From a candidate division FCPU426 bacterium (GTDB lineage: Bacteria > Oederibacteriota > JAAXVQ01 > JAUVAV01): a stretch of DNA of 23,909 nucleotides. The notes under the pieces were generated by a model that did not search any database, was not told the origin of the DNA, and worked only from the letters and a program-made list of their open reading frames with translations. Position 1 is the first letter of the stretch. Each line of letters starts with the position of its first letter. Of the stretch, positions 6,150 through 15,525 are shown in pieces. The position numbers and the translations under genes were made by a program. Location: the NCBI GenBank assembly GCA_030637655.1, contig DAOWGI010000047.1, forward strand, positions 1 to 23,909. Direction: 5' to 3'.

Positions 6150-6294
6150 ACTCCCTCAGGCCGGGGATAGAGTAACCACAAATTTTAATTGGCTGGTGTA
6201 TTTAATTTTTTAGCTGCTCAACCGAGAATACTGATGTTCTGAGTAAGTAAGACTTTCACCTCATACTGTGATCCGTTTGGAGGTTCTAAAAACC

Positions 6295-6765
6295 ATGCCC
6301 AACTCTGCTTCCACCGCTTACCTGACAACATTACGCAAGACCAGATCCTCCAAACGGATATTAATTGTGGATGATGAAAAAGATATTGTCAACCTGATTA
6401 AATACCAGCTAAAAGCTGAAGGCTATCAGGTGGTTACTGCTTTTGACGGTTTAGAGGCATTGGAAAAAGTAGCGGAAGAGAAACCGGATTTGGTGATCCT
6501 GGATATTATGATGCCCAAGGTGGATGGCTGGGTGGTCTGTCATAGTGTGAAGGGCAATATTTCAACCCGCAATACCCGCGTTATTATTCTCACTGCCAAA
6601 TCCCAATTCATGGCCAAAATCAAAGGTCTATACATCATGCAAGCGGATATTTATATGTCAAAACCCTTTGAGAACACAGAACTTTTGTCCAATACCGACC
6701 GCTTGCTAAATATTGAGGAAGAAGCTAACTCCGCTCTTCCGGCAGTGCAGCCGACAACCTCCTAA
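6295..6765 (+). CDS. Single-domain response regulator (receiver)
   Basis: ILIVDDE, LVILDIMMP (phospho-Asp), ILTA, SKPF; no output domain. ATG 6295 follows GGAGG; alternative GTG at 6268. Confidence 0.92.
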   Translation: MPNSASTAYLTTLRKTRSSKRILIVDDEKDIVNLIKYQLKAEGYQVVTAFDGLEALEKVAEEKPDLVILDIMMPKVDGWVVCHSVKGNISTRNTRVIILTAKSQFMAKIKGLYIMQADIYMSKPFENTELLSNTDRLLNIEEEANSALPAVQPTTS

Positions 6766-6929
6766 CCCGGACAAGCCGGAACCAAAGATATTTGACAGGA
6801 TAACAGGATTGACAGGATTTATTTAAAATCCCGTATATTCTGTTAATCCCGTCAAAAGAAATTCTTTGCGCTCTTTACGGCGAATAATTTTCTGCCATAA
6901 AAACACGAATTTGAGAATTAAGATACTAA
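6762..6929 (-). mobile_element. Gene-less TTAG-bounded element, copy 1
   Basis: Both ends homologous to 13926-14089; CTAA at both boundaries; internal GACAGGAT/ATCCCGTC periodic inverted repeat. Confidence 0.6.
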
Positions 6930-6936
6930 GCCGCCT

Positions 6937-7164
6937 CTAAAAATCCAGCACACCCAAAAAATTTAATAATCCGACAATGGTAAAAATCATGCCGGTCAGC
7001 ATTAAATAGGTCTGCACACCTTTCAGTAAACGATCGTTGCCTTCTTTCTTGGTTAGCCAACAATGCAAACGCAGATAAAATTTGGATAATATTTCCCGGC
7101 CCAGACTAAAAAAGGCTCCCATAACAATCAAACCCAATGCCACAGAGTTCATTTCCTGATTCAT
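6937..7164 (-). CDS. Small two-TM membrane protein
   Basis: AAGGAGG RBS upstream; two hydrophobic segments; directly downstream of the helicase gene. Confidence 0.75.
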   Translation of the reverse strand: MNQEMNSVALGLIVMGAFFSLGREILSKFYLRLHCWLTKKEGNDRLLKGVQTYLMLTGMIFTIVGLLNFLGVLDF

Positions 7165-7198
7165 ACTTGCATTCCTCCTTAAAAGACACTGTTTGAGA

Positions 7199-9226
7199 TC
7201 ATAACACTACATTTTCCTGCGAAAAGTGTTTGGACACAAAATTACGCACCTGATCCATATGCTGCAGATGTGAACATTGCGGCAGCGTATCTAAAAACAA
7301 TTGTCCCCACCCCCGGGTCTGTATTCGCGGATCCATAATAGCCACAATCCCACGATCCGCATGACTCCTGATCAGGCGGCCGAATCCCTGGCGCAACATC
7401 AGAGCTGCCCGCGGAATGGAGTAGGTCATAAACGGATTCTCGCCCATAAGCGTTAAATACTCCGCCCGCGCTTGATGAATCGGATGCGTAGGCACATCAA
7501 AAGGCAGGCGGGTGATTACTACGCAACGCAAGGCTTCCCCAGGGATATCCACTCCCTGCCAAAAGGTTTCCACACCCAGCATAACGGCATGCGAATCCCG
7601 TTGAAAATAATCGATAAGACGTTGAGGCGCTGCCTCCCCTTGCACGAGAATCATATGCCGCGAGTTCTGTTCCCGCAAATACCCGGCAATTCGATGGAGC
7701 ATGCGATAACTGGTACAGAGCACAAAAACACCCCCGGCAAAAATATTGATTAAGGTCTCTACTGCTGTGAGAATATATTTCTCATAGGCCTCGACATGTT
7801 TGGGATCCGGTATCGCTGTCGGCAGATAAATAGCCGCATGCTCTTGAAAAGGGAAAGGCGAGTGGGTAACCACTTCCAATGCTTCTGGAATTCCCAGGCG
7901 CGAACGCACATAAGAAAAATCATCCTCCACAGCCAGGGTGGCTGAAGTCAATACCACGCTTGCTTCTGTGCCAAAGAGCACGCCGGCCAGTTTGTCACTC
8001 AAATCCAGCGGTGTAATATTCAAGCGTACCTGGGGACCAAAACGGGTTTTTATCTTTTCGGTCCAGTACACTGATTCTTGGCTTACGCGTTCAAACCAGG
8101 TCTGCTCAATTCCAGCCATCTCTGTCAAGCGTCCGGCACAGAATGCCAGGCGTCTGGCCTCTTCCTCGGTTCCGACACTTTCCTGGAGTTCTGTAAGATC
8201 TTGAGCCAAGCCGCGGATCAACTCTGTATCCGGAGCGGCAATAGGCAGGCTGTGCCCGGTGATACGCACCATATCGCTCTGAGAATGAAAAAGATTCAGC
8301 AATGATTTCCACCAGCACTCCTGCTTGGCTGCCAAAACCGCGGCTTTTTCCCGGGTCTTTTCCCGCAAACCGGAATCAATATCCTGCAAGGCATCCAAAA
8401 TATGGACCTTGCCTCGTTTTACCATATCCGACAGCAGATGCAAAACTTCAAACTGTGCCAAGGTATCTCCCAAAAAACGGGTTGCCACATCTTCCAACTT
8501 GTGGGCTTCATCCAGAATCACAGCTTTGTATTCAGGCAACAGACGGCCTTCAGTCATTAGATTTGAAAAGAAGAGATAATGATTGGCAACTAACACATCG
8601 GCTTCACGCTGGCGTTTGCGTGCTTGCAGCAAATAACATTCCTTATACTGTGGACATTGTCTTTGTATACATAAATCATTAATCACACAGACGCGCTGCC
8701 AGAGGGCATCCGATACAGGCTTCGGCAAATCCGCACGTATACCTGATATCTCCCCCTCGCACCAATGCAAACACAATTGCAAATGCTGATTGTACTCCGG
8801 ATCAATTCCTGAAATTTGCTCTTGGCTCCCTTCCCGGATTAAACGAAGCAAGCAAAGGTAGTTCTCCGCACCCAGGCATATCTCAAAGCGAAAATCACGG
8901 GCAAAACATTTCTGCCCTGCCAGACGCGGCAATTCTTTGGTCATCAACTGTGATTGGAGTGCTTTAGTATGCGTGACAATTAACAGTCGCGCTTTGTTCT
9001 CCAAGGCCCAGGCAATACCCGGAACCAAGTAGGCCAAACTTTTGCCTACCCCGGTTCCGGCCTCGGCCAGACAATGCTGTTGGGTATAGAGCGCTTCCTG
9101 AATGGTCTGGGCCAATTCCACTTGTTCTTCGCGCTGCTGATAACCGGGAAGCATTTTGGCCAATGTGCCATTTGCAGCGAAAAAGCGTTTTATGTCCAGC
9201 GGTTGCAAATCTTCTTGTGCTTCCAT
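7199..9226 (-). CDS. DinG/YoaA-family ATP-dependent Fe-S DNA helicase
   Basis: Q-motif REEQ, Walker A EAGTGVGKS, Fe-S cysteines (NYLC...C...CPQYKEC), DEAH, TSATL, FWQGVD, LRQGFGRLIR. Confidence 0.93.
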   Translation of the reverse strand: MEAQEDLQPLDIKRFFAANGTLAKMLPGYQQREEQVELAQTIQEALYTQQHCLAEAGTGVGKSLAYLVPGIAWALENKARLLIVTHTKALQSQLMTKELPRLAGQKCFARDFRFEICLGAENYLCLLRLIREGSQEQISGIDPEYNQHLQLCLHWCEGEISGIRADLPKPVSDALWQRVCVINDLCIQRQCPQYKECYLLQARKRQREADVLVANHYLFFSNLMTEGRLLPEYKAVILDEAHKLEDVATRFLGDTLAQFEVLHLLSDMVKRGKVHILDALQDIDSGLREKTREKAAVLAAKQECWWKSLLNLFHSQSDMVRITGHSLPIAAPDTELIRGLAQDLTELQESVGTEEEARRLAFCAGRLTEMAGIEQTWFERVSQESVYWTEKIKTRFGPQVRLNITPLDLSDKLAGVLFGTEASVVLTSATLAVEDDFSYVRSRLGIPEALEVVTHSPFPFQEHAAIYLPTAIPDPKHVEAYEKYILTAVETLINIFAGGVFVLCTSYRMLHRIAGYLREQNSRHMILVQGEAAPQRLIDYFQRDSHAVMLGVETFWQGVDIPGEALRCVVITRLPFDVPTHPIHQARAEYLTLMGENPFMTYSIPRAALMLRQGFGRLIRSHADRGIVAIMDPRIQTRGWGQLFLDTLPQCSHLQHMDQVRNFVSKHFSQENVVL

Positions 9227-9246
9227 GGTAAAATTCAGAGTTCCTT

Positions 9247-9849
9247 TTAATTTCTAATACTGTCTGGAAAGGGTGGCAATCCTTTGGGACCAATGCGTAT
9301 AAATTTCAAAATACGGCGAATCATACCAAGTTCATAAAGAATACCCAACACACTCAGACAAAAACCCAGTACCGGCACACTCAACATTTTCTGGATTTCA
9401 CCAACCCACCACCGGGTTACACCCAGATGCCAGCCATCCGGCCAAAACCAGAGTGTCAATACAGCACAAATCCAGATGCCGGCTACGATAAAATGCTGTT
9501 GCTTTACGATTTCCTGCAATACCACATCTAATTTCCGTTCCGCAATCCAAATATTGGCACAGCGATCGAAAAAAATAAACAGTGTGAATATGCTCATAGC
9601 AATCCATTCGTAACCGGTTCCGCTGATGTCGCGCGTCTGCTGAGCTTGCGCTACTATCAATACGGTTTGAGAGGATAAAAAATAACCCCATATGAGCAGA
9701 AACAGACTCAGGGTCACACCGCGTCCACGCCCGATTACCTTGAGCACACCATGTGCTGTTCCGAAAACAAATGCCCAGCAGAATCGAAAACAAAACAAGC
9801 TAACACCCAACAGCACAAAACAATTAAAAATTCCGGCACCCGCACTCAT
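9247..9849 (-). CDS. Hypothetical multi-pass membrane protein
   Basis: About five hydrophobic segments; stop lies 20 nt before the helicase start. Start uncertain (ATG 9849 or 9894). Confidence 0.6.
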   Translation of the reverse strand: MSAGAGIFNCFVLLGVSLFCFRFCWAFVFGTAHGVLKVIGRGRGVTLSLFLLIWGYFLSSQTVLIVAQAQQTRDISGTGYEWIAMSIFTLFIFFDRCANIWIAERKLDVVLQEIVKQQHFIVAGIWICAVLTLWFWPDGWHLGVTRWWVGEIQKMLSVPVLGFCLSVLGILYELGMIRRILKFIRIGPKGLPPFPDSIRN

Positions 9850-10010
9850 ACGACAATTACCTTTCCAAACACCAAATTGCACACATCTTCTCATCCCTTT
9901 TTTGAATTGACCAGTAATTTTTTGTATAAATTATAGCGGCCTTTACAGTACAATACGAGCAACATTTCCTATTGTTCGTAGTATGTCAGTAAACTGCTGT
10001 TAAACAAAGG

Positions 10011-10125
10011 TTGTCATTCCCGAGGGTTTAATCGGCCCCGACCGGAAAAGATATATAGGGACGCCTTCGGCAGGAATCTGGTTTTTTTAAACCGTATCCC
10101 CGATACAAGCATTCGGGGATGACAA
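10011..10125. repeat. GTCATTCCCG...CGGGGATGAC palindromic repeat element
   Basis: TTGTCATTCCCGA (10011-10023) / TCGGGGATGACAA (10113-10125), one mismatch; internal ATCCCCGA..TCGGGGAT hairpin. Confidence 0.7.
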
Positions 10126-10188
10126 ACAAAAAAACGCATGACTGACATGTTACTATTGTTTAGTGACCATATTTTCCAGGAGCTTGCA

Positions 10189-10608
10189 ATGCCCGTATTT
10201 CCAGTTTCCGAACAAAAATACCAGGCTTTGGCAGAACGAATGGACGCCTTGGGCATGAAGGAAAAAGATCTGGAGGAACGATTTTTACGCTCCGGCGGTC
10301 CTGGCGGCCAGCATGTGAACAAAGTATCCACCTGTGTGGTACTCCGCCATATCCCAACCGGTCTGGAAGTGCGCTGCCAAAAAGAACGATCACAGAGCAT
10401 GAATCGCTTTTTCGCACGCCGGCTTTTAGCGGATAAACTGGATGAATTGATTAACAAAGAAAAGAGCGAAGCCCAACAAAAACGTGAAAAGCTGCGTCGT
10501 CAAAAACGGCGCCGTTCACGCCGGGCTAAGGCCAAGATGTTGGAGGACAAACGGCATCAGTCTGTGAAGAAACAGCAGCGCTCGTTTCGTCCCCAATTGG
10601 ATGAATAA
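10189..10608 (+). CDS. Codon-independent peptidyl-tRNA hydrolase / ribosome rescue factor (ArfB/C12orf65-like)
   Basis: RSGGPGGQHVNK (GGQ), HIPTG, RSQSMNR, very basic C-terminal tail, no codon-recognition domain. ATG 10189 follows AGGAG. Confidence 0.9.
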   Translation: MPVFPVSEQKYQALAERMDALGMKEKDLEERFLRSGGPGGQHVNKVSTCVVLRHIPTGLEVRCQKERSQSMNRFFARRLLADKLDELINKEKSEAQQKREKLRRQKRRRSRRAKAKMLEDKRHQSVKKQQRSFRPQLDE

Positions 10609-11665
10609 TCTCCCAGATTTGCGGATCCTCAAAACCGATGCGCCAGACAAAAATACCACCCAAGCCTGAATTACGGACCACGTGAATAGTGGCAGCCAGA
10701 CTTTTATGATCACCATACCAGACGTTATGCAGCCCATCCTTGGCGCGGTAGGTATAATGCGCAAAGGGCCCTGCTATAAATCCACCTTTGGATTTGCTCT
10801 GATAAAATATCCTGGCGCTTTTTTGTTGGGCGCGCTTTTTTAACTTAAGCCCGCCGTAATAACGGCCTCGATAAGATTTGTTTTTCCGTTTGACCCAGTC
10901 ATTACCGTATGTTGGATGTCCAATCCAGAAACGTTCCGGATACGGACAGGTCTTGATATACGCAATGACCTTTTTGGTGACACCCAAGGGAATGATGGGA
11001 CCGGGCGGGCCACTGCGAATGTACCAATCATAACACATAACATTCACACGCCCGACTAAAGTGGGAAGCACCTGCCAATCGTAGGCTCTGGTTTTTTTCC
11101 AACCCGGAGAGGAAAATTTAGGCGGCACAGTGATATCCAAGGCTTTTTCTTCCAGATCCAGCGCAGCAGCCAGTTCCCGGACAAAGACAGTTAGGGATTG
11201 ACAGCTGTTGGCTGGTAAATTTTCGTAATCCAGGTCCACGCCGTCATAGCCTAAGTCCAGGACCGCTTTGCGGATATTTTGAATATGCCGGCGCCGAAAC
11301 TCAGGACGCTCCAGCATACGCACAATTATTTCCGGATGGGAAAATCCACCTCCGTAATTTCCCAGTCCCATATACACCGGAATGGCATTATCGCGGCACC
11401 AGGCGGTAATGCTTGTGGCCAGTGCATCGCCTTGCGCAACACGTCGATATCCCAGACCAATCCCGTTTTTAGCAATACAATGATCAGATACCAATACCCT
11501 GGAAATTTTATCCTTGTTTTTCTTGATGGATTCCATACCTCGATCCAAGTCACCCAAACGAACCCAGACAGCCAATCGATCCTCATACTCCGCCGCTACC
11601 GGCAAGACAGCTATCATGTGTATACCAACCAGAAATCCAATACTGAGTAATACTGTTTTTTTCAA
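10526..11665 (-). CDS. Secreted glycoside hydrolase family 18 (chitinase / peptidoglycan hydrolase-like)
   Basis: Signal peptide, catalytic YDGVDLDYE (DxxDxDxE), VMCYD, GPPGPI, GGIFVWRIGFED; TTG start after GAGGAG. Confidence 0.9.
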   Translation of the reverse strand: MKKTVLLSIGFLVGIHMIAVLPVAAEYEDRLAVWVRLGDLDRGMESIKKNKDKISRVLVSDHCIAKNGIGLGYRRVAQGDALATSITAWCRDNAIPVYMGLGNYGGGFSHPEIIVRMLERPEFRRRHIQNIRKAVLDLGYDGVDLDYENLPANSCQSLTVFVRELAAALDLEEKALDITVPPKFSSPGWKKTRAYDWQVLPTLVGRVNVMCYDWYIRSGPPGPIIPLGVTKKVIAYIKTCPYPERFWIGHPTYGNDWVKRKNKSYRGRYYGGLKLKKRAQQKSARIFYQSKSKGGFIAGPFAHYTYRAKDGLHNVWYGDHKSLAATIHVVRNSGLGGIFVWRIGFEDPQIWEIIHPIGDETSAAVSSQTDAVCPPTSWP

Positions 11666-11718
11666 GGTTAACTCCTCAATGATACGCCTTTGATTTTACG
11701 TTTTCTGATTTTAAACCT

Positions 11719-11911
11719 GGCGGGTGGGTTTGGAACCCACCCCTACGATATTTTTCATTCGATTCCTTCGCGTCCTTCGCGGACTAATCCTTTGACTCTT
11801 ACGGTCGAACATACCCAAAAGACGGGCACAGGCAAGGTTTACCCGTACGGTCAATATGGGGCGTATGCAATACGTCCCTACTCTTGGTGGGCGAGATAAC
11901 CTCGCCCCTAC
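11719..11911 (-). repeat. Cluster of four REP-like hairpins plus an orphan periodic arm
   Basis: Minus strand GTAGGGGTGGGTT..AACCCACCC (11746-11719), degenerate GTACGGG unit (11848-11824), GTAGGGACGTAT..ATACGCCCC (11881-11856), GTAGGGGCGAG..CTCGCCCACC (11911-11886); CCTTCGCGT-CCTTCGCGG at ~11765-11782. Confidence 0.8.
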
Positions 11912-12558
11912 AGCACCTTTTCAAATTGTTTGCGTACATCGCTGCGCAAAAAGTACCAGACTAAAAAACCGCCCAAGACCGGAATATCCCAGAAACCGCC
12001 ACCGATCAGGAGTACGACTAACCAACCTAAAGCAGCTAAAATAATTTCCAGCCACGCCAGCGTTAAAACCGCATAGCGTGCTGCTGCCACACAATTCAGC
12101 AGGCCCATGCCCATGATACTTATCCCCATGCTGATCAGCACAATAAACCCTCCGAACCAATTTAAAAACATCCGGCTGCCGGGTATGGAATCCAAGCTGA
12201 CAGGAATGGCATTGGTCATCATGGCACGAATGGGAACCGCTTTGCTGAACAAGGAAAGACCAAGCATAAACAACGCTAATCCAAAAAGGAACACTCCACC
12301 CACAAAAAAACACCAGGCAATAATTTTCAACCCCAGAGAAGGCGCCTCGATCTCTGATTGGTCCTTAGCTTTTTTTTCCAGTTTTTTTCTCGCTGTATCA
12401 ACACACTCGCGGTGATAGACCTGAAAATTGAGCGCAATGGGTTTGCAATCTTTACAGATAGGTTTGCCACATACTCCGCATACCCATTTGGCATTAGTCT
12501 TGTGCTCAAGACATTGCTGTTCTTGTGTATTCGGATATTCGTTGTCCGTCGCTGCCAT
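11908..12558 (-). CDS. B-box-like zinc finger membrane protein
   Basis: C-x2-H-x7-C-x2-C-x4-C-x2-C-x10-H-x2-C at the N-terminus followed by 3-4 TM helices; AAGGAG upstream. Confidence 0.8.
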   Translation of the reverse strand: MAATDNEYPNTQEQQCLEHKTNAKWVCGVCGKPICKDCKPIALNFQVYHRECVDTARKKLEKKAKDQSEIEAPSLGLKIIAWCFFVGGVFLFGLALFMLGLSLFSKAVPIRAMMTNAIPVSLDSIPGSRMFLNWFGGFIVLISMGISIMGMGLLNCVAAARYAVLTLAWLEIILAALGWLVVLLIGGGFWDIPVLGGFLVWYFLRSDVRKQFEKVL

Positions 12559-12586
12559 AAATATTCAATTTCTCCTTAAAAAACAA

Positions 12587-12662
12587 TGATTTAAAGTAGG
12601 GGCACGATGCTTGTTCGACATCGCTTTAGCGAAGTCGAATGCCGTGCCCCTACTTTAAATCA
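12587..12662. repeat. Double-footed REP-like inverted repeat with a nested hairpin
   Basis: Perfect 20-bp IR TGATTTAAAGTAGGGGCACG / CGTGCCCCTACTTTAAATCA enclosing TTCGAC-ATCGC-TTTA-GCGAA-GTCGAA. Confidence 0.85.
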
Positions 12663-12710
12663 AGACATTTGGGTGAGCAAGTCTTTATTTGAGAGAATTA
12701 TTGTTTTTAC

Positions 12711-12743
12711 AAAAAAACCGGCCAGGAATGGGACCCTGGCCGG
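12711..12743 (-). terminator. Rho-independent terminator
   Basis: 9-bp GC-rich stem plus T7 on the minus strand, ~110 nt downstream of purM. Confidence 0.85.
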
Positions 12744-12784
12744 GCAGTACTTCAGCACTGGAGGGGTTTCTGTGGCTGAAGTAT
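12711..12784 (-). ncRNA. Small RNA candidate (~75 nt) with anti-SD loop and intrinsic terminator
   Basis: Stem TACTTCAGC/GCTGAAGTA with CCCCTCC in the loop, then CCGGCCAGG-N8-CCTGGCCGG-T7. Confidence 0.6.
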
Positions 12785-12789
12785 CTAAA

Positions 12790-12818
12790 AACTTAACATT
12801 AGACACCAATCACAGCAA
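12790..12818 (-). promoter_or_regulatory. Putative sigma70 promoter with extended -10
   Basis: Minus strand TTGCTG-N17-TAAGTT with TGn before the -10; predicted +1 falls at the base of the first stem (~12784). Confidence 0.5.
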
Positions 12819-12852
12819 AATGTTTCATTTATTTTTTCGAGGGATTGCCGGA

Positions 12853-13890
12853 CTAATGGTACTCTACTCGGGGCGATCCTGCCTGAATTTCACCTATAAT
12901 ATAGGCTTTTTCTTTCTTTTTATGCAAATGCCGCATGACCCTGGCAGCTTCTTGGCGTGCTACTACCAGAACCATGCCAATTCCCATATTCAAGGCGCGA
13001 TACATTGTGCTCTCATCCAAACGACCGTTCATTACCAGCAACTTAAATATTAGTGGAATCGGCCAACTTCCTTGGTGAATAATCGCTTTGCACTTGGCAG
13101 GTAAAATACGAGGCAGATTTCCAGTCAATCCGCCGCCGGTAATATGCGCCATTCCTTGAATACTGTTTTTCTTGAGCAAAGCTTCTACTACAGACAGATA
13201 TGAACGGTGCACAGCCAGGAGTGCTTCACCTATGGAGGTTCCTAATTCCGGAATCCGTTGCTTGGGTTTGAGCTTCATTTTCTCAAAAAACACTTTACGG
13301 GCCAGGGAATAGCCATTGGTATGCAAGCCGGTGGATGGTAAGCCGATCAGAACATCTTTGGGTCGTATCTTTTTACCATCAATCACTCTTTTCTTTTCCA
13401 CCAAGCCGACAATAGTACCGGCCAAATCAAAATCTTTTCCCTGATATAGACCCGGCATTTCGGCTGTCTCTCCACCCAATAAAGCACACTTGTTCTCCCG
13501 ACAGGCTTGGGCCACGCCTTTCACAATCTGTTCAGCGACTTTGGGATCCAATTTGCCGGTTGCAAAGTAATCCATAAAAAAAAGCGGACGCGCGCCCTGG
13601 ACTAAAATGTCATTCACACAATGATTCACCAGATCCTGGCCGACTGTATCGTATTTGCCCATGAGAGCAGCCAGCATCAGCTTGGTGCCCACACCATCAG
13701 TGGAACCAACCAAAATCGGCTCTTGCCAGCCTTTGGGCATTTGATACAATCCGCCAAAAAGACCGATATCTGTTATCATCCCGGCAGTCCGGGCAGAACG
13801 AACATGCGCGCGCATGCGGCGTACAGCTTCATTTCCCGCGTCAATATTCACACCCGCCTGGGCATAAGCATCTTTGGCTTTCTTTTTCAC
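12853..13890 (-). CDS. purM: Phosphoribosylformylglycinamidine cyclo-ligase (AIR synthetase)
   Basis: YAQAGVNI, TDGVGTK, GGETAEMPG, STGLHTNGYSL, HITGGG, NMGIGM; GTG start after AGGAG. Confidence 0.97.
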   Translation of the reverse strand: MKKKAKDAYAQAGVNIDAGNEAVRRMRAHVRSARTAGMITDIGLFGGLYQMPKGWQEPILVGSTDGVGTKLMLAALMGKYDTVGQDLVNHCVNDILVQGARPLFFMDYFATGKLDPKVAEQIVKGVAQACRENKCALLGGETAEMPGLYQGKDFDLAGTIVGLVEKKRVIDGKKIRPKDVLIGLPSTGLHTNGYSLARKVFFEKMKLKPKQRIPELGTSIGEALLAVHRSYLSVVEALLKKNSIQGMAHITGGGLTGNLPRILPAKCKAIIHQGSWPIPLIFKLLVMNGRLDESTMYRALNMGIGMVLVVARQEAARVMRHLHKKKEKAYIIGEIQAGSPRVEYH

Positions 13891-13925
13891 AAAACATCTC
13901 CTCTAACTTATTTCCGGCCTTACAC

Positions 13926-14089
13926 CTAACCCGGATAAACCGGAACCAAATTTAGCCGCCGATACACGCGGATACACACAAATTAAAATCTTTTTTATCC
14001 ATTAGGCTATAAATATCTGCGTTTATTTGCGTTCATCGGCGGTTAATTTTCTTTCCATTTTTGAAAGAATTTCATTTGTAAGCGCCTAA
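13926..14089 (-). mobile_element. Gene-less TTAG-bounded element, copy 2
   Basis: Both ends homologous to 6762-6929; CCTAAC at both boundaries; internal 10-nt periodic inverted repeat (CGCCGATACA../..ATCGGCGG). Confidence 0.6.
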
Positions 14090-15525
14090 CTTATACGCTG
14101 TTGGTCCATTTCTTTGGAGACGATTTCCCGCGCGCTTTTTTCGTGGCGTTCGTTAAAATCCACCGGATAGTCTCCGTTAAAGCAAGCGCAACAGAAATTA
14201 TTTTCATCTTCTACCATGGCTTTGAGCATTCCCTCATGTGATAAGTACGCTACTGAATCTACCCGCAAGTATTTGGCAATCTCTTCCTGAGAATGCGTGG
14301 CTGCGATCAGTTCTTTGCGCGTGGGAAAATCCATCCCGTAAAAACAGGGATACTTTACCGGCGGCGAACTTAAGCGCATATGTATCTCTTTGGCGCCTGC
14401 CTGACGAATCATCTTGATTATTTTACGGGCCGTTGTGCCCCGAACCAGAGAATCGTCAATAACAATGACCCGTTTCCCTTTGACCGCTTCTTTCACCACA
14501 TTGAATTTAAGTTTCACGCCAAAATCCCGGATAGATTGAGATGGCTCAATAAACGTACGGCCAATATAATGATTACGGATCAGAGCCATTTCAAAGGGGA
14601 TATCGGCTTCCTGGGAAAACCCAATTGCCGTGCATACTCCGGAATCCGGCACCGGAATAACAATATCCGCTGGGTTTTCATTTTCTTGAGCCAGCATCCG
14701 ACCCAAGCGACGGCGTGCTTCCCAACAGGAATGTCCAAAAATCAAGGAGTCCGGTCGCGAAAAATATATATACTCAAAAATGCAATGCGCTTGCCGCTTT
14801 GGTTTGGGCGCAAAACGATGAGATCGCAGGCCTTTTTTGTTAATCAGCAATATTTCACCCGGCTCCACATCGCGCACATACTCGGCGCCAACCAAATCAA
14901 AAGCACAGGTCTCAGATGCCACGACATAAGCTTCTCCCACTTTGCCAAGTGCCAAGGGACGAAAACCATACGGATCACGAATCGCAATCAGAGTATCATC
15001 ATTCATTAAGAGAACCGAATAGGCACCTTCCATCTGGAGCAACGAGGTGGACAACGCCTCTAAAAATTCTTTTTCCCGGCTCCGCGCAAGCAAGTGAATC
15101 AGAACTTCAGAATCCGCCGAGGTCTGAAAAATCGAGCCCTCTTGTACCAGGGTGTTACGGATTTTTTCCGCATTCACCAGATTACCATTATGCGCCAAGG
15201 CCAGATTGCCGCGGCTGTACTCAACCATCAGGGGTTGGGCATTTTTTTCCGTCGATGGGCCGGTGGTGGAATAACGGACATGGCCAATTGCTACGGAACC
15301 AAACAAAGTAGCGAGTTTGTTTTCATCGAACACATCTGCTACCAATCCGGTGCCGCGAACAGCATTGAAACCCAATTCATTACTGGTAATAATTCCCGCA
15401 CCCTCCTGGCCCCGATGCTGTAAAGCATAAAGCATTAAATAGACCAGATTGGCTGCTTCTGCTTGACCGCAAATGCCTGCAATGCCGCATTCTTCCCGCG
15501 GCTTATCCTCCTGCCGGATGTACAT
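14086..15525 (-). CDS. purF: Amidophosphoribosyltransferase
   Basis: Propeptide ending [41 protein letters not shown], Fe-S cysteines (CFYG, CCACF). Confidence 0.98.

Follow-up and report, generated by a model that had tools for sequence, protein, structure and literature searches.

What are the two gene-less, hairpin-bearing cassettes of about 165 bp that lie between genes in a 23,909-nucleotide (nt) stretch of a candidate division FCPU426 bacterium (GenBank assembly GCA_030637655.1, contig DAOWGI010000047.1, positions 1 to 23,909; the whole stretch is hereafter called the window), and what kind of enzyme moves them? An earlier, sequence-only reading of the window had described the pair and proposed a non-autonomous element that recombines at a TTAG core and exchanges its cargo, using an enzyme supplied in trans that might be a tyrosine recombinase or integrase, an IS110-like protein or an HUH nuclease. 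A non-autonomous, TTAG-tied mobile element that lacks terminal inverted repeats (TIRs) and needs an enzyme in trans is supported here by paired copies elsewhere in the genome, by empty sites and by gene-bearing relatives. The cassettes are probably miniature, non-autonomous derivatives, similar to miniature inverted-repeat transposable elements (MITEs) and palindrome-associated transposable elements (PATEs), of an undescribed insertion sequence (IS)-like transposon family with a Rep_trans-like tyrosine nuclease.

Direct reading of the window confirmed the described anatomy: two gene-less cassettes with a common end, a spaced motif at the other end and different hairpin interiors. The minus strand is the functional strand of both, and all layouts from the left (L) module to the right (R) module are written on it. 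The parts of the two copies are as follows.

6762-6929, minus strand: cassette copy 1, a 168-nt non-autonomous element with an A-type central hairpin.
6762-6786, minus strand: R module of copy 1, TTTGGTTCCGG-CTTGT-CCGGGTTAG, a small hairpin CCGG/CCGG and then GTTAG.
6791-6856, minus strand: central long hairpin of copy 1, A type, with GACAGGAT-like arms, in the minority orientation.
6888-6910, minus strand: L-module hairpin of copy 1, TTCGTG.../...CAGAA, bulged.
6926-6929, minus strand: left boundary TTAG of copy 1, read as target-derived.
13926-14089, minus strand: cassette copy 2, a 164-nt non-autonomous element with a B-type central hairpin, in the purF-purM spacer.
13926-13950, minus strand: R module of copy 2, TTTGGTTCCGG-TTTAT-CCGGGTTAG.
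13955-14042, minus strand: central long hairpin of copy 2, B type, with CCGCCGATGAACGC... arms.
14048-14070, minus strand: L-module hairpin of copy 2, TTCTTTC/GAAAGAA.
14086-14089, minus strand: left boundary TTAG of copy 2, whose TAG (14086-14088) is the present purF stop codon.

The shared end is identical at 24 of 26 nt (CCTAACCCGGAcAAgCCGGAACCAAA versus ...tAAa...), and both copies fit the spaced left motif TTAG-N3-CTTA-N6-AAATTC-N8-ATGG-N2/3-GAAAATTA-N2-CGCCG. The R pattern TTTGGTTCCGG-N5-CCGGGTTAG matches the window twice without mismatch, where 0.01 matches are expected and none of 100 shuffles gave two or more. Beyond the R modules, the G at 6761 is flank or target of copy 1, and the G at 13925 is flank of copy 2, followed by GTGTAA, left over from the end of the ancestral purF. 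Both copies have TTAG at their borders (minus strand), the junctions of copy 2 do read GTTAGGC and GTTAGGT as claimed, and neither copy contains a TIR or an open reading frame (ORF) of at least 80 amino acids (aa). The interiors are two different long hairpins (folding z-scores of -5.7 for copy 1 and -3.3 for copy 2 against shuffled sequence), and in both copies CUUA can pair with UAGG between the element ends, closing a three-hairpin fold.

Across the assembly (3.28 Mb, 91.6% complete), the R pattern has 81 matches at up to two mismatches, compared with none for the reversed control, and iterated nhmmer searches recovered 90 R modules and 61 L modules. The expected further copies with both ends paired are present: L and R lie within 400 nt of each other in 51 pairs, alongside 39 solo R and 11 solo L modules, and the pairs mostly span 161-169 nt, with one 93-nt copy that has no central hairpin. 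Many copies are decayed or nested. The R modules also include 22 of the 90 that sit inside a different element, a true MITE whose inverted repeats read GTAAYATGTCAGTGAA and which has 8-bp duplications (e.g. GTAATTGC and GGAATTTT; among others on contigs C45 (L029) and C49); this TIR-MITE captured the 3' part of L, the B-type hairpin and an R variant (..CCGGATTAG). Among close relatives, one to three R motifs were found in four of ten genomes of the same family, and none in 30 other sampled genomes of the phylum.

The boundaries of the family are sharp. With the first T of the left TTAG, BLAST coverage climbs from 9 hits to 27, and past the right TTAGG it drops. At the left end the base counts are T31 T37 A37 G31 of 38, preceded by random bases; at the right end they are T66 T66 A65 G56 of 68, the next base is G in 63 of 68, and thereafter there is no preference. 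TTAG stands at both ends in 23 of 38 full copies, and its first T is less fixed on the left (31/38) than on the right (66/68; Fisher p 0.01). By analogy with IS608, this difference fits what would be expected if the left word were target and the right word element-borne.

Between these ends the interiors vary, with at least four types (A, B, C and D). Within the fixed L/R frame, the A hairpin is oriented as in copy 1 in 6 cases and flipped in 30, and the B hairpin is oriented as in copy 2 in 17 and flipped in 18, while 19 R ends have another interior or none. Hairpins in both orientations within a fixed frame imply inversion of the whole hairpin or its re-synthesis by template switching. The element may exchange its cargo, as suggested earlier; what is observed are subfamily-specific hairpins of several types in both orientations, and a search of this genome for gene cargo found none. 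No gene-bearing copy was found in this genome, the long L-R distances and solo L modules being contig ends, nested repeats or D-type copies.

That the elements are insertions is settled by two independent empty sites, the first of which lies in a relative, where the sequence-only reading had advised looking, and the second in another phylum. The adjacency of purF and purM is kept in all ten genomes of the same family, and the aligned gene ends are 21-45 nt apart in eight of them and 132 and 267 nt apart in the other two. Where the relative G003 reads ATAAG-CCAG-GTGTAA, this genome reads ATAAG-TTAG[element]TTAG-GTGTAA, so that the element and four further bases were gained; copy 2 has cut off the former purF end (..Q V stop), which now lies beyond it, and purF has lost its last two codons. 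The second site is in a gammaproteobacterial genome unrelated to this one: a full-length relative there interrupts another repeated sequence, whose intact paralogous copy reads aaagca-TTAGG-gctgtt. The left junction there is aaagca followed by TTAGTACC, and the right junction is GGGTTAGG followed by gctgtt, from which it follows that the G after the right TTAG comes from the target (TTAG, then G). Neither site shows duplication beyond the tetranucleotide, and a 4-bp duplication is also compatible with both. The two wider purF-purM spacers (267 nt in L041 and 132 nt in L042) contain other GC-rich hairpin repeats, e.g. GTAGGGAACGGTCGCGACCGTTCCCTAC, indicating that the same intergenic site was colonised independently.

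An exact scan for TTTGGTTCCGG-N5-CCGGGTTAGG returned at least 117 genome stretches; among the matches listed, record titles name Proteobacteria, Acidobacteria, Chloroflexi, Planctomycetes, Nitrospirae, Armatimonadota, Gemmatimonadetes, Bacillota and others, and many of the matches listed are at contig ends. Most of these matches are again short elements, with lineage-specific hairpins or as hairpin-less forms of about 90 nt. Gene-bearing versions, which the sequence-only reading had suggested looking for, occur in other phyla with the same two ends. At two loci (L092 and L057), L and R modules enclose an ORF of 505 or 510 aa on the opposite strand in elements of 1644 and 1677 nt, the stop of the ORF abutting L and its start lying about 55 nt from R; gene fragments are present at three further loci. 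The genome that holds L092 (G041) has six copies with 90-100% DNA identity and unrelated flanks, and in all six the boundaries are identical, flank passing into TTAGTACCTTACC on the left and CCGGGTTAGG passing into flank on the right. One of these full-length copies (L092, the same as L168) has a 17-21-nt direct repeat, TTAGGTTTATA(TA)TACCGCTT, on both sides, which the other five do not have. R-motif counts in other carriers are 6, every one of them gene-bearing, 24, with a full gene plus a fragment, and 83, where the homologues are only 26-28% identical, so this genome is not alone in having a swarm of miniatures and no close helper. Paraburkholderia phytofirmans OLGA172 provides a cultured example on pOLGA1, where the protein is annotated as 'ArsR family transcriptional regulator'.

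The ends of these elements are conserved as structures. All copies have the R hairpin CCGG-N5-CCGG. In a set of 15 elements drawn from several phyla, 83.8% of L-hairpin cells are paired compared with 72.1% in shuffles (0/500 reach the observed value), a figure inflated by the partial choice of this set with a hairpin finder; five of seven pairs change on both sides, slid controls give 44-60%, and T-G wobbles fit the L-to-R strand only. The termini themselves, TTAGTATCTTA... and ...CCGGGTTAG, do not form an inverted repeat. A short, imperfect one links CCTTAC near the left end with GTTAGG at the right, its left arm being offset by 7 nt; in Chloroflexi copies it is perfect, as CCTAACCCG/CGGGTTAGG, and in the Paraburkholderia end variants a compensatory G/C change connects the L pentamer with the R terminus. 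Beyond the R module of one further locus (L066) the terminal word is reiterated, ...GCCGGGTTAGG CGGGTTAGGGAAGG CGGGTTAGGGA CGGGT, resembling the product of slippage, or of repeated processing of the end, at the cleavage site. Of 14 pattern hits for head-to-tail R-L junctions sharing one TTAG in metagenome contigs, 12 are chance matches and two are real:

L195, about 930-1010: head-to-tail junction, the upstream element carrying the N-terminal half of the 505-aa gene.
L199, about 2070-2150: head-to-tail junction.

These junctions may reflect insertion behind the terminal TTAG of a resident copy, or multimers; tandem insertions may account for them rather than circles.

Circles would also give head-to-tail junctions with one TTAG, as would be expected of a cassette for site-specific recombination, whether integron attC-like, moved by another tyrosine or serine recombinase, or of the IS110 type with a guide RNA, that exchanges at a TTAG core. 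We consider such a cassette highly improbable, even though the same tetranucleotide occurs at both junctions and once in the empty sites (TTAGG at the second site; G003 reads CCAG) and the genome encodes two intact tyrosine recombinases and one IS110-type DEDD gene. GTTAGGY does fit the integron core GTTRRRY, and the match is genuine, yet it is merely a degenerate 7-mer. The two cores are direct, with no inverted pair as in attC, the copies are scattered over many contigs and form no arrays, and the full-length relatives have no integrase, resolvase or DEDD domain; both the integron or tyrosine-recombinase option and the IS110-like option of the earlier proposal fall away on these grounds. A core of 4 bp is also short for tyrosine recombinases. 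The genome's own Y1_Tnp (four hits), DEDD (one) and intact integrase (two) genes were considered as helpers, and none is flanked by L or R modules: the PF00589 hits on contigs C83, C41 and C91 do not adjoin a cassette copy, and the single DEDD gene (C66) has other repeats around it.

The enzyme of the transposon family to which we assign the cassettes would be the 505-aa protein, which belongs to no Pfam or NCBIfam family. At E<=1 it has only weak winged-helix matches in Pfam and no model in NCBIfam, and 70 diverse members (E<=0.01) match winged-helix families only; in neither search was there a PF01797, PF02486, DEDD, integrase, resolvase, DDE or HUH family match. A profile search of PDB sequences gave MarR-like matches only, and the ESM atlas gave 'hypothetical protein' clusters. 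The family is large, with 7746 representatives at 50% identity at E<=1e-3 and 756 at E<=1e-30; 7956 of 8000 scored 90%-identity clusters reach E<=1e-3, their contigs mostly measure 1.6-2.5 kb, and members are named 'hypothetical', 'MarR family' or MarR/ArsR regulator.

In the full-length AlphaFold model (pLDDT 67.7) just the winged helix matched anything, whereas residues 1-390, folded alone with 70 sequences, gave a model with pLDDT 95.4 and pTM 0.92. The top Foldseek matches of this model in the PDB are Rep_trans initiators (4cij, E 6e-5, prob 0.99; 4cwe, 4.4e-4, prob 1.00; 4cwc, 1.5e-3), followed by the TATA-binding protein (TBP). VIA-align gave Z 8.9/8.6/8.3 for TBP (best: 180 aligned, root-mean-square deviation (rmsd) 3.9), 7.2 for RepDE (181 aligned, rmsd 5.2) and 6.7 for RepSTK1 (198 aligned, rmsd 4.9), with 175-198 aligned residues overall; residues 391-505 form a predicted winged helix (Z 8-9.7). 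Invariant or near-invariant residues of the family fall in four motifs, FRLQIYFNGH, QVEFATD, IKLYDK and ARVE, and include K316, Y318, K320, R326, E328, E244, D248 and D20. By eye, the motifs RIEFNPNK, RLDLAFD, IRIYNK and WRVE of pT181 RepC (from the plasmid record) follow in the same order. As described in PMC4797284, the catalytic Tyr, the R/K residues next to it and the metal-binding residues lie in these motifs of RepC; in RepDE, Y191 is the nucleophile with R189 and K193 beside it and R212 nearby, and D46, D142 and E214 bind metal, and with these named residues too the family's residues line up by eye. Excerpts of PMC13107129 state that Rep_trans enzymes have a TBP fold, list them only in plasmids, filamentous phages and conjugative transposons, and describe an archaeal protein, Rep-Arvir, that combines a TBP-like domain with a MarR-like winged helix. 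Judged by modelled fold and motifs, the 505-aa protein is likely to be a member of the Rep_trans superfamily. As a separate observation, the pT181 nick-site hairpin AACCGGCTACTCTAATAGCCGGTTGG (L191, 4352-4382) and a gammaproteobacterial R module TTCCGGCTATGCCGGGTTAGG have CCGGCTA.. / ..GCCGG(G)TT(A)GG in common, which may be chance.

The genomic setting of the cassettes bears both on how they move and on whether they serve a function. The genes next to the two window copies, named from Pfam, are:

6268-6765, plus strand: response-regulator gene, neighbour of copy 1; its TAA stop (6763-6765) falls within the right-end TTAG of the copy.
On the other side of copy 1: DinG-like helicase gene.
14086-15525: PurF-type amidotransferase gene, neighbour of copy 2.
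12853-13890: PurM-type AIR synthase gene, neighbour of copy 2.

For the 68 copies outside the TIR-MITE, with crude ORF-based gene calls, 34 lie between co-oriented genes that run in the same direction as the copy and 15 between co-oriented genes that run opposite (p 0.009); eight lie between converging and two between diverging genes, and of the remaining nine, two are inside called ORFs and seven, close to contig ends, have a called neighbour on a single side. A co-oriented ORF (at least 80 aa) starts within 60 nt downstream of 30/68 R ends, many at 3-30 nt, the TAA stop of a converging frame overlaps 13/68 R ends, and the left TAG is the stop codon of a long frame in 6/38. Since TTAG contains TAG and its complement TAA, frequent abutment on stop codons is to be expected, and the position near starts and stops follows from a target word that contains TAG/TAA and often precedes GAGG. 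The L-to-R strand is the G-rich strand around 46 of the 68 TTAG-bounded copies (p 0.005) and is co-oriented with local genes in 47 of 68 (p 0.002); for the same modules carried inside the TIR-MITE the corresponding values are 11/22 and 12/22, that is, no bias.

Placement of this kind, with R ends close upstream of co-oriented ORFs and an excess of copies co-oriented with both flanking genes, could also be expected if the cassettes were primarily functional RNA or DNA modules (intercistronic stabilisers, insulators, or suppliers or maskers of Shine-Dalgarno sequences) whose spread is secondary. The pairing of the ends into a three-hairpin fold and the covariation of the L hairpin would suit such a role, but we regard it as unlikely. 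Rfam has no match in the window at gathering score, and at E<=10 just microRNA-type hairpin noise on both elements; the downstream genes are unrelated to one another; the 13 R ends that overlap a converging stop codon do so in antisense; many copies are decayed or nested; the modules carried inside TIR-MITEs show no orientation bias; and the same ends bound a gene-bearing element in other phyla.

More probably the cassettes derive from a transposon with a Rep_trans-like nuclease. As observed in other phyla, the full-length element (about 1.65 kb) consists, from L to R, of a target TTAG, an L module consisting of NNN-CTTAC and then a small hairpin, the gene of about 505 aa on the opposite strand, a spacer of about 55 nt, the R module TTTGGTTCCGG-N5-CCGGGTTAG and a target G. 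In the cassettes a long hairpin, specific to the subfamily, stands in place of the gene, and the forms of about 90 nt have neither. The 505-aa protein would be the transposase. Its N-terminal 390 residues would form a TBP-fold, Rep_trans-like nuclease with Tyr318, in K-x-Y-x-K, as the putative catalytic residue and D20, E244 and E328 as the carboxylates, and its C-terminal winged helix may read the element ends. The protein is proposed to nick the L-to-R strand 3' of TTAG at both ends, after which the nicked single strand would enter TTAG sites, in the peel-and-paste manner of IS200/IS605 or through a rolling circle like that of IS91, with insertion probably into the lagging-strand template. 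Single-strand chemistry of this kind fits the covariation of the L hairpin, the G-rich strand bias and the greater variability of the left TTAG. The HUH option of the earlier proposal comes closest in chemistry, the predicted nick-and-join reaction being the same; the enzyme itself differs, having no HUH family match and a predicted TBP fold, which is unrelated.

Besides the inflated pairing of the L hairpin, several results weigh against this explanation. A profile hidden Markov model of the protein, searched against 38,518 six-frame fragments of this genome, gave no match at E<=10 (positive control 1e-212), and the best tblastn hit for a helper in this genome had E 0.15. None of 99 genomes of the phylum has a homologue in a search with the alignment as query and no internal positive; a single-protein search recovered five of five known carriers. 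With 91.6% completeness, and with repeats often lost from bins, loss of a helper and its non-assembly are indistinguishable. As no enzyme gene is assembled, the 70-90 or so copies are either relics or orphans whose helper has been lost or has escaped assembly. The strand bias cannot separate replication from transcription, since gene strand in this genome is correlated with GC skew (r 0.90). The assembled (Logan) contigs of public runs, which break at repeats, contain no circle, excision product or empty allele at either copy; one contig of a strain about 94% alike covers most of copy 2, and none joins across either copy, so that on excision and expression they speak neither for nor against. 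As for the protein, the fold scores (Z 6.7-8.9) are in the middling range of the tool, the Rep proteins scoring no higher than TBP itself. The by-eye correspondence to RepC is not a scored alignment, hhalign against pT181 RepC gives a non-significant probability of 0.09% with the first motif pair as the sole aligned stretch, and PF02486 matches neither the protein (E<=1) nor the 70 members (E<=0.01). Finally, one nested insertion has TTAT at both ends, which matches a 4-bp target duplication better than a fixed, element-borne TTAG.

A target duplication is what would be left by a DDE-type element with IS5-like YTAR targeting, of which the cassettes would be cut-and-paste MITEs flanked by 4-bp TTAG duplications, the 505-aa protein being a regulator or passenger. 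This would be in keeping with the TTAG at both ends of 23 of 38 full copies and with the short imperfect inverted repeat, with its perfect form in Chloroflexi and its compensatory change in Paraburkholderia; targeting of YTAR-type sites by IS5 is reported. This origin is nonetheless improbable. The 7-nt offset of the repeat at the left means that the termini themselves are not inverted repeats, and the two TTAGs differ in conservation. The TBP-fold protein is the sole gene in 6/6 copies of one genome, with no DDE, NCBIfam or Pfam transposase match, and the strand bias is seen in TTAG-bounded copies and not in those carried by the TIR-MITE.

A transposon family of the proposed kind resembles several known systems and coincides with none. 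Like IS200/IS605 elements and PATEs it lacks TIRs, is inserted 3' of a fixed tetranucleotide that marks the limit of any duplication, has a subterminal hairpin at either end, is strand-specific with an orientation bias and has short gene-less derivatives (the details of IS608 are established knowledge). Unlike in IS200/IS605, the enzyme is not a Y1 HUH TnpA (no PF01797 match; a predicted TBP-like fold), the two end hairpins differ from each other and the right hairpin abuts the cleavage word. With IS91, ISCR and Helitrons (HUH Y2) it has in common that one gene encodes a tyrosine nuclease (here a predicted one) of the replication-initiator type, as well as the absence of TIRs, a junction tetranucleotide, a 3' subterminal hairpin and the possibility of head-to-tail tandems; the predicted nuclease belongs to a different superfamily, with no HUH motif and no helicase domain, and TTAG is present at both ends. 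In contrast to IS91-type elements, no one-ended read-through events carrying flanking genes are evident among the copies of this genome. By enzyme, IS200/IS605, IS91, IS110 and integrons all fail to match, and in behaviour the family is closest to the IS200/IS605 miniatures and to the IS91/Helitron type.

The predicted enzyme comes closest to the archaeal Rep-Arvir proteins and to the Rep_trans (PF02486)/MOB_T proteins (pT181 RepC/RepD, RepSTK1), the latter being its best structural matches, with motifs, colinear by eye, that include [RK]-x-Y-x-K and R-V-E. The literature on Rep_trans describes a separate DNA-binding part that reads a palindrome beside the hairpin nick site, and the pT181 origin hairpin, like the R module, is built on CCGGCTA.../...TAGCCGG. 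The 505-aa protein differs in its length, its large insertions, its MarR/ArsR-like C-terminal winged helix and the absence of a significant sequence match, and it is encoded on a 1.65-kb multi-copy chromosomal element and not on a plasmid, phage or conjugative element. Rep-Arvir (DUF7845; archaeal viruses and plasmids) likewise has a TBP-like catalytic domain recognisable by structure alone, a MarR-like winged helix and a cis-acting downstream hairpin, according to PMC13107129; here the setting is a bacterial transposon and not archaeal replicons, and the 70 members have no Pfam DUF7845 match at E<=0.01.

Conserved ends, variable structured middles and a GTTRRRY-like junction word recall integron cassettes and attC, from which the cassettes differ in having GTTAGG at both ends in the same orientation with no RYYYAAC partner at the left end, in the absence of an array, attI or linked intI, and in carrying no genes. 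Unlike IS110/IS1111, the element protein has no DEDD domain (PF01548). Classical MITEs are also small, gene-less, highly repeated, intergenic and hairpin-forming, with ends common to an autonomous parent, yet they have TIRs, as the true TIR-MITE with 8-bp duplications in the same genome shows by contrast. BOX and bcr1 are modular repeats of a comparable kind, small, gene-less and hairpin-forming. Unlike REP/REPIN repeats with their RAYT, the cassettes have no GTAG head, except for the GTAG-hairpin interior of C-type copies.

GTAG-headed hairpin repeats (e.g. GTAGAGACGCGATTAATCGCGTCTCTAC and several GTAGGGGC... types), which differ from the cassettes in sequence, cluster in this genome near Y1_Tnp (RAYT-like) gene fragments, at positions 1-1100 of contig C60 (L034) and on other contigs. 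One such hairpin in the C60 locus directly follows the codons for MPNHIHGIIEI, which we read as an HUH motif, and the same hairpin is the interior of C-type cassettes. The window also contains a 176-bp MITE at 9977-10152, with inverted ends GTAGTATGTCAGT...ACTGACATGTTAC and flanks TATTGTT(C/T); a contig of a strain about 94% alike, from one public run, joins 9976 to 10153 without it, so that this insertion appears polymorphic. At 11563-11839 and 12394-12670 the summed contig depth rises to about 86 and about 157, compared with about 15, in run X1, which suggests further short intergenic repeats.

For this bacterium, the analysis describes some 70-90 insertions placed precisely between genes, one of which now parts purF from purM. 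Our search of the full-text literature (supplements and ISfinder aside) found no description of such a transposon, and the family plausibly represents an unrecognised class of prokaryotic transposon, with a TBP-fold, Rep_trans-like tyrosine nuclease joined to a winged helix, in which an initiator was recruited independently, alongside the HUH families. That class may well be very abundant in environmental bacteria of many phyla, spawning TTAG-specific hairpin MITEs that settle on stop codons and ribosome-binding regions with neither gene broken. If so, a family of 7746 clusters (50% identity) now labelled 'hypothetical' or 'MarR/ArsR regulator' would consist of transposases, and one more nuclease superfamily would join the few enzyme types that move DNA. 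It would also account for a common class of hairpin repeats, so far without explanation, in genomes assembled from metagenomes, and for some of the contig breaks there. Compact and built on one protein, with a strict target of 4-5 nt and single-strand chemistry, such a system would lend itself directly to tests, and Paraburkholderia phytofirmans pOLGA1 offers a cultured source.

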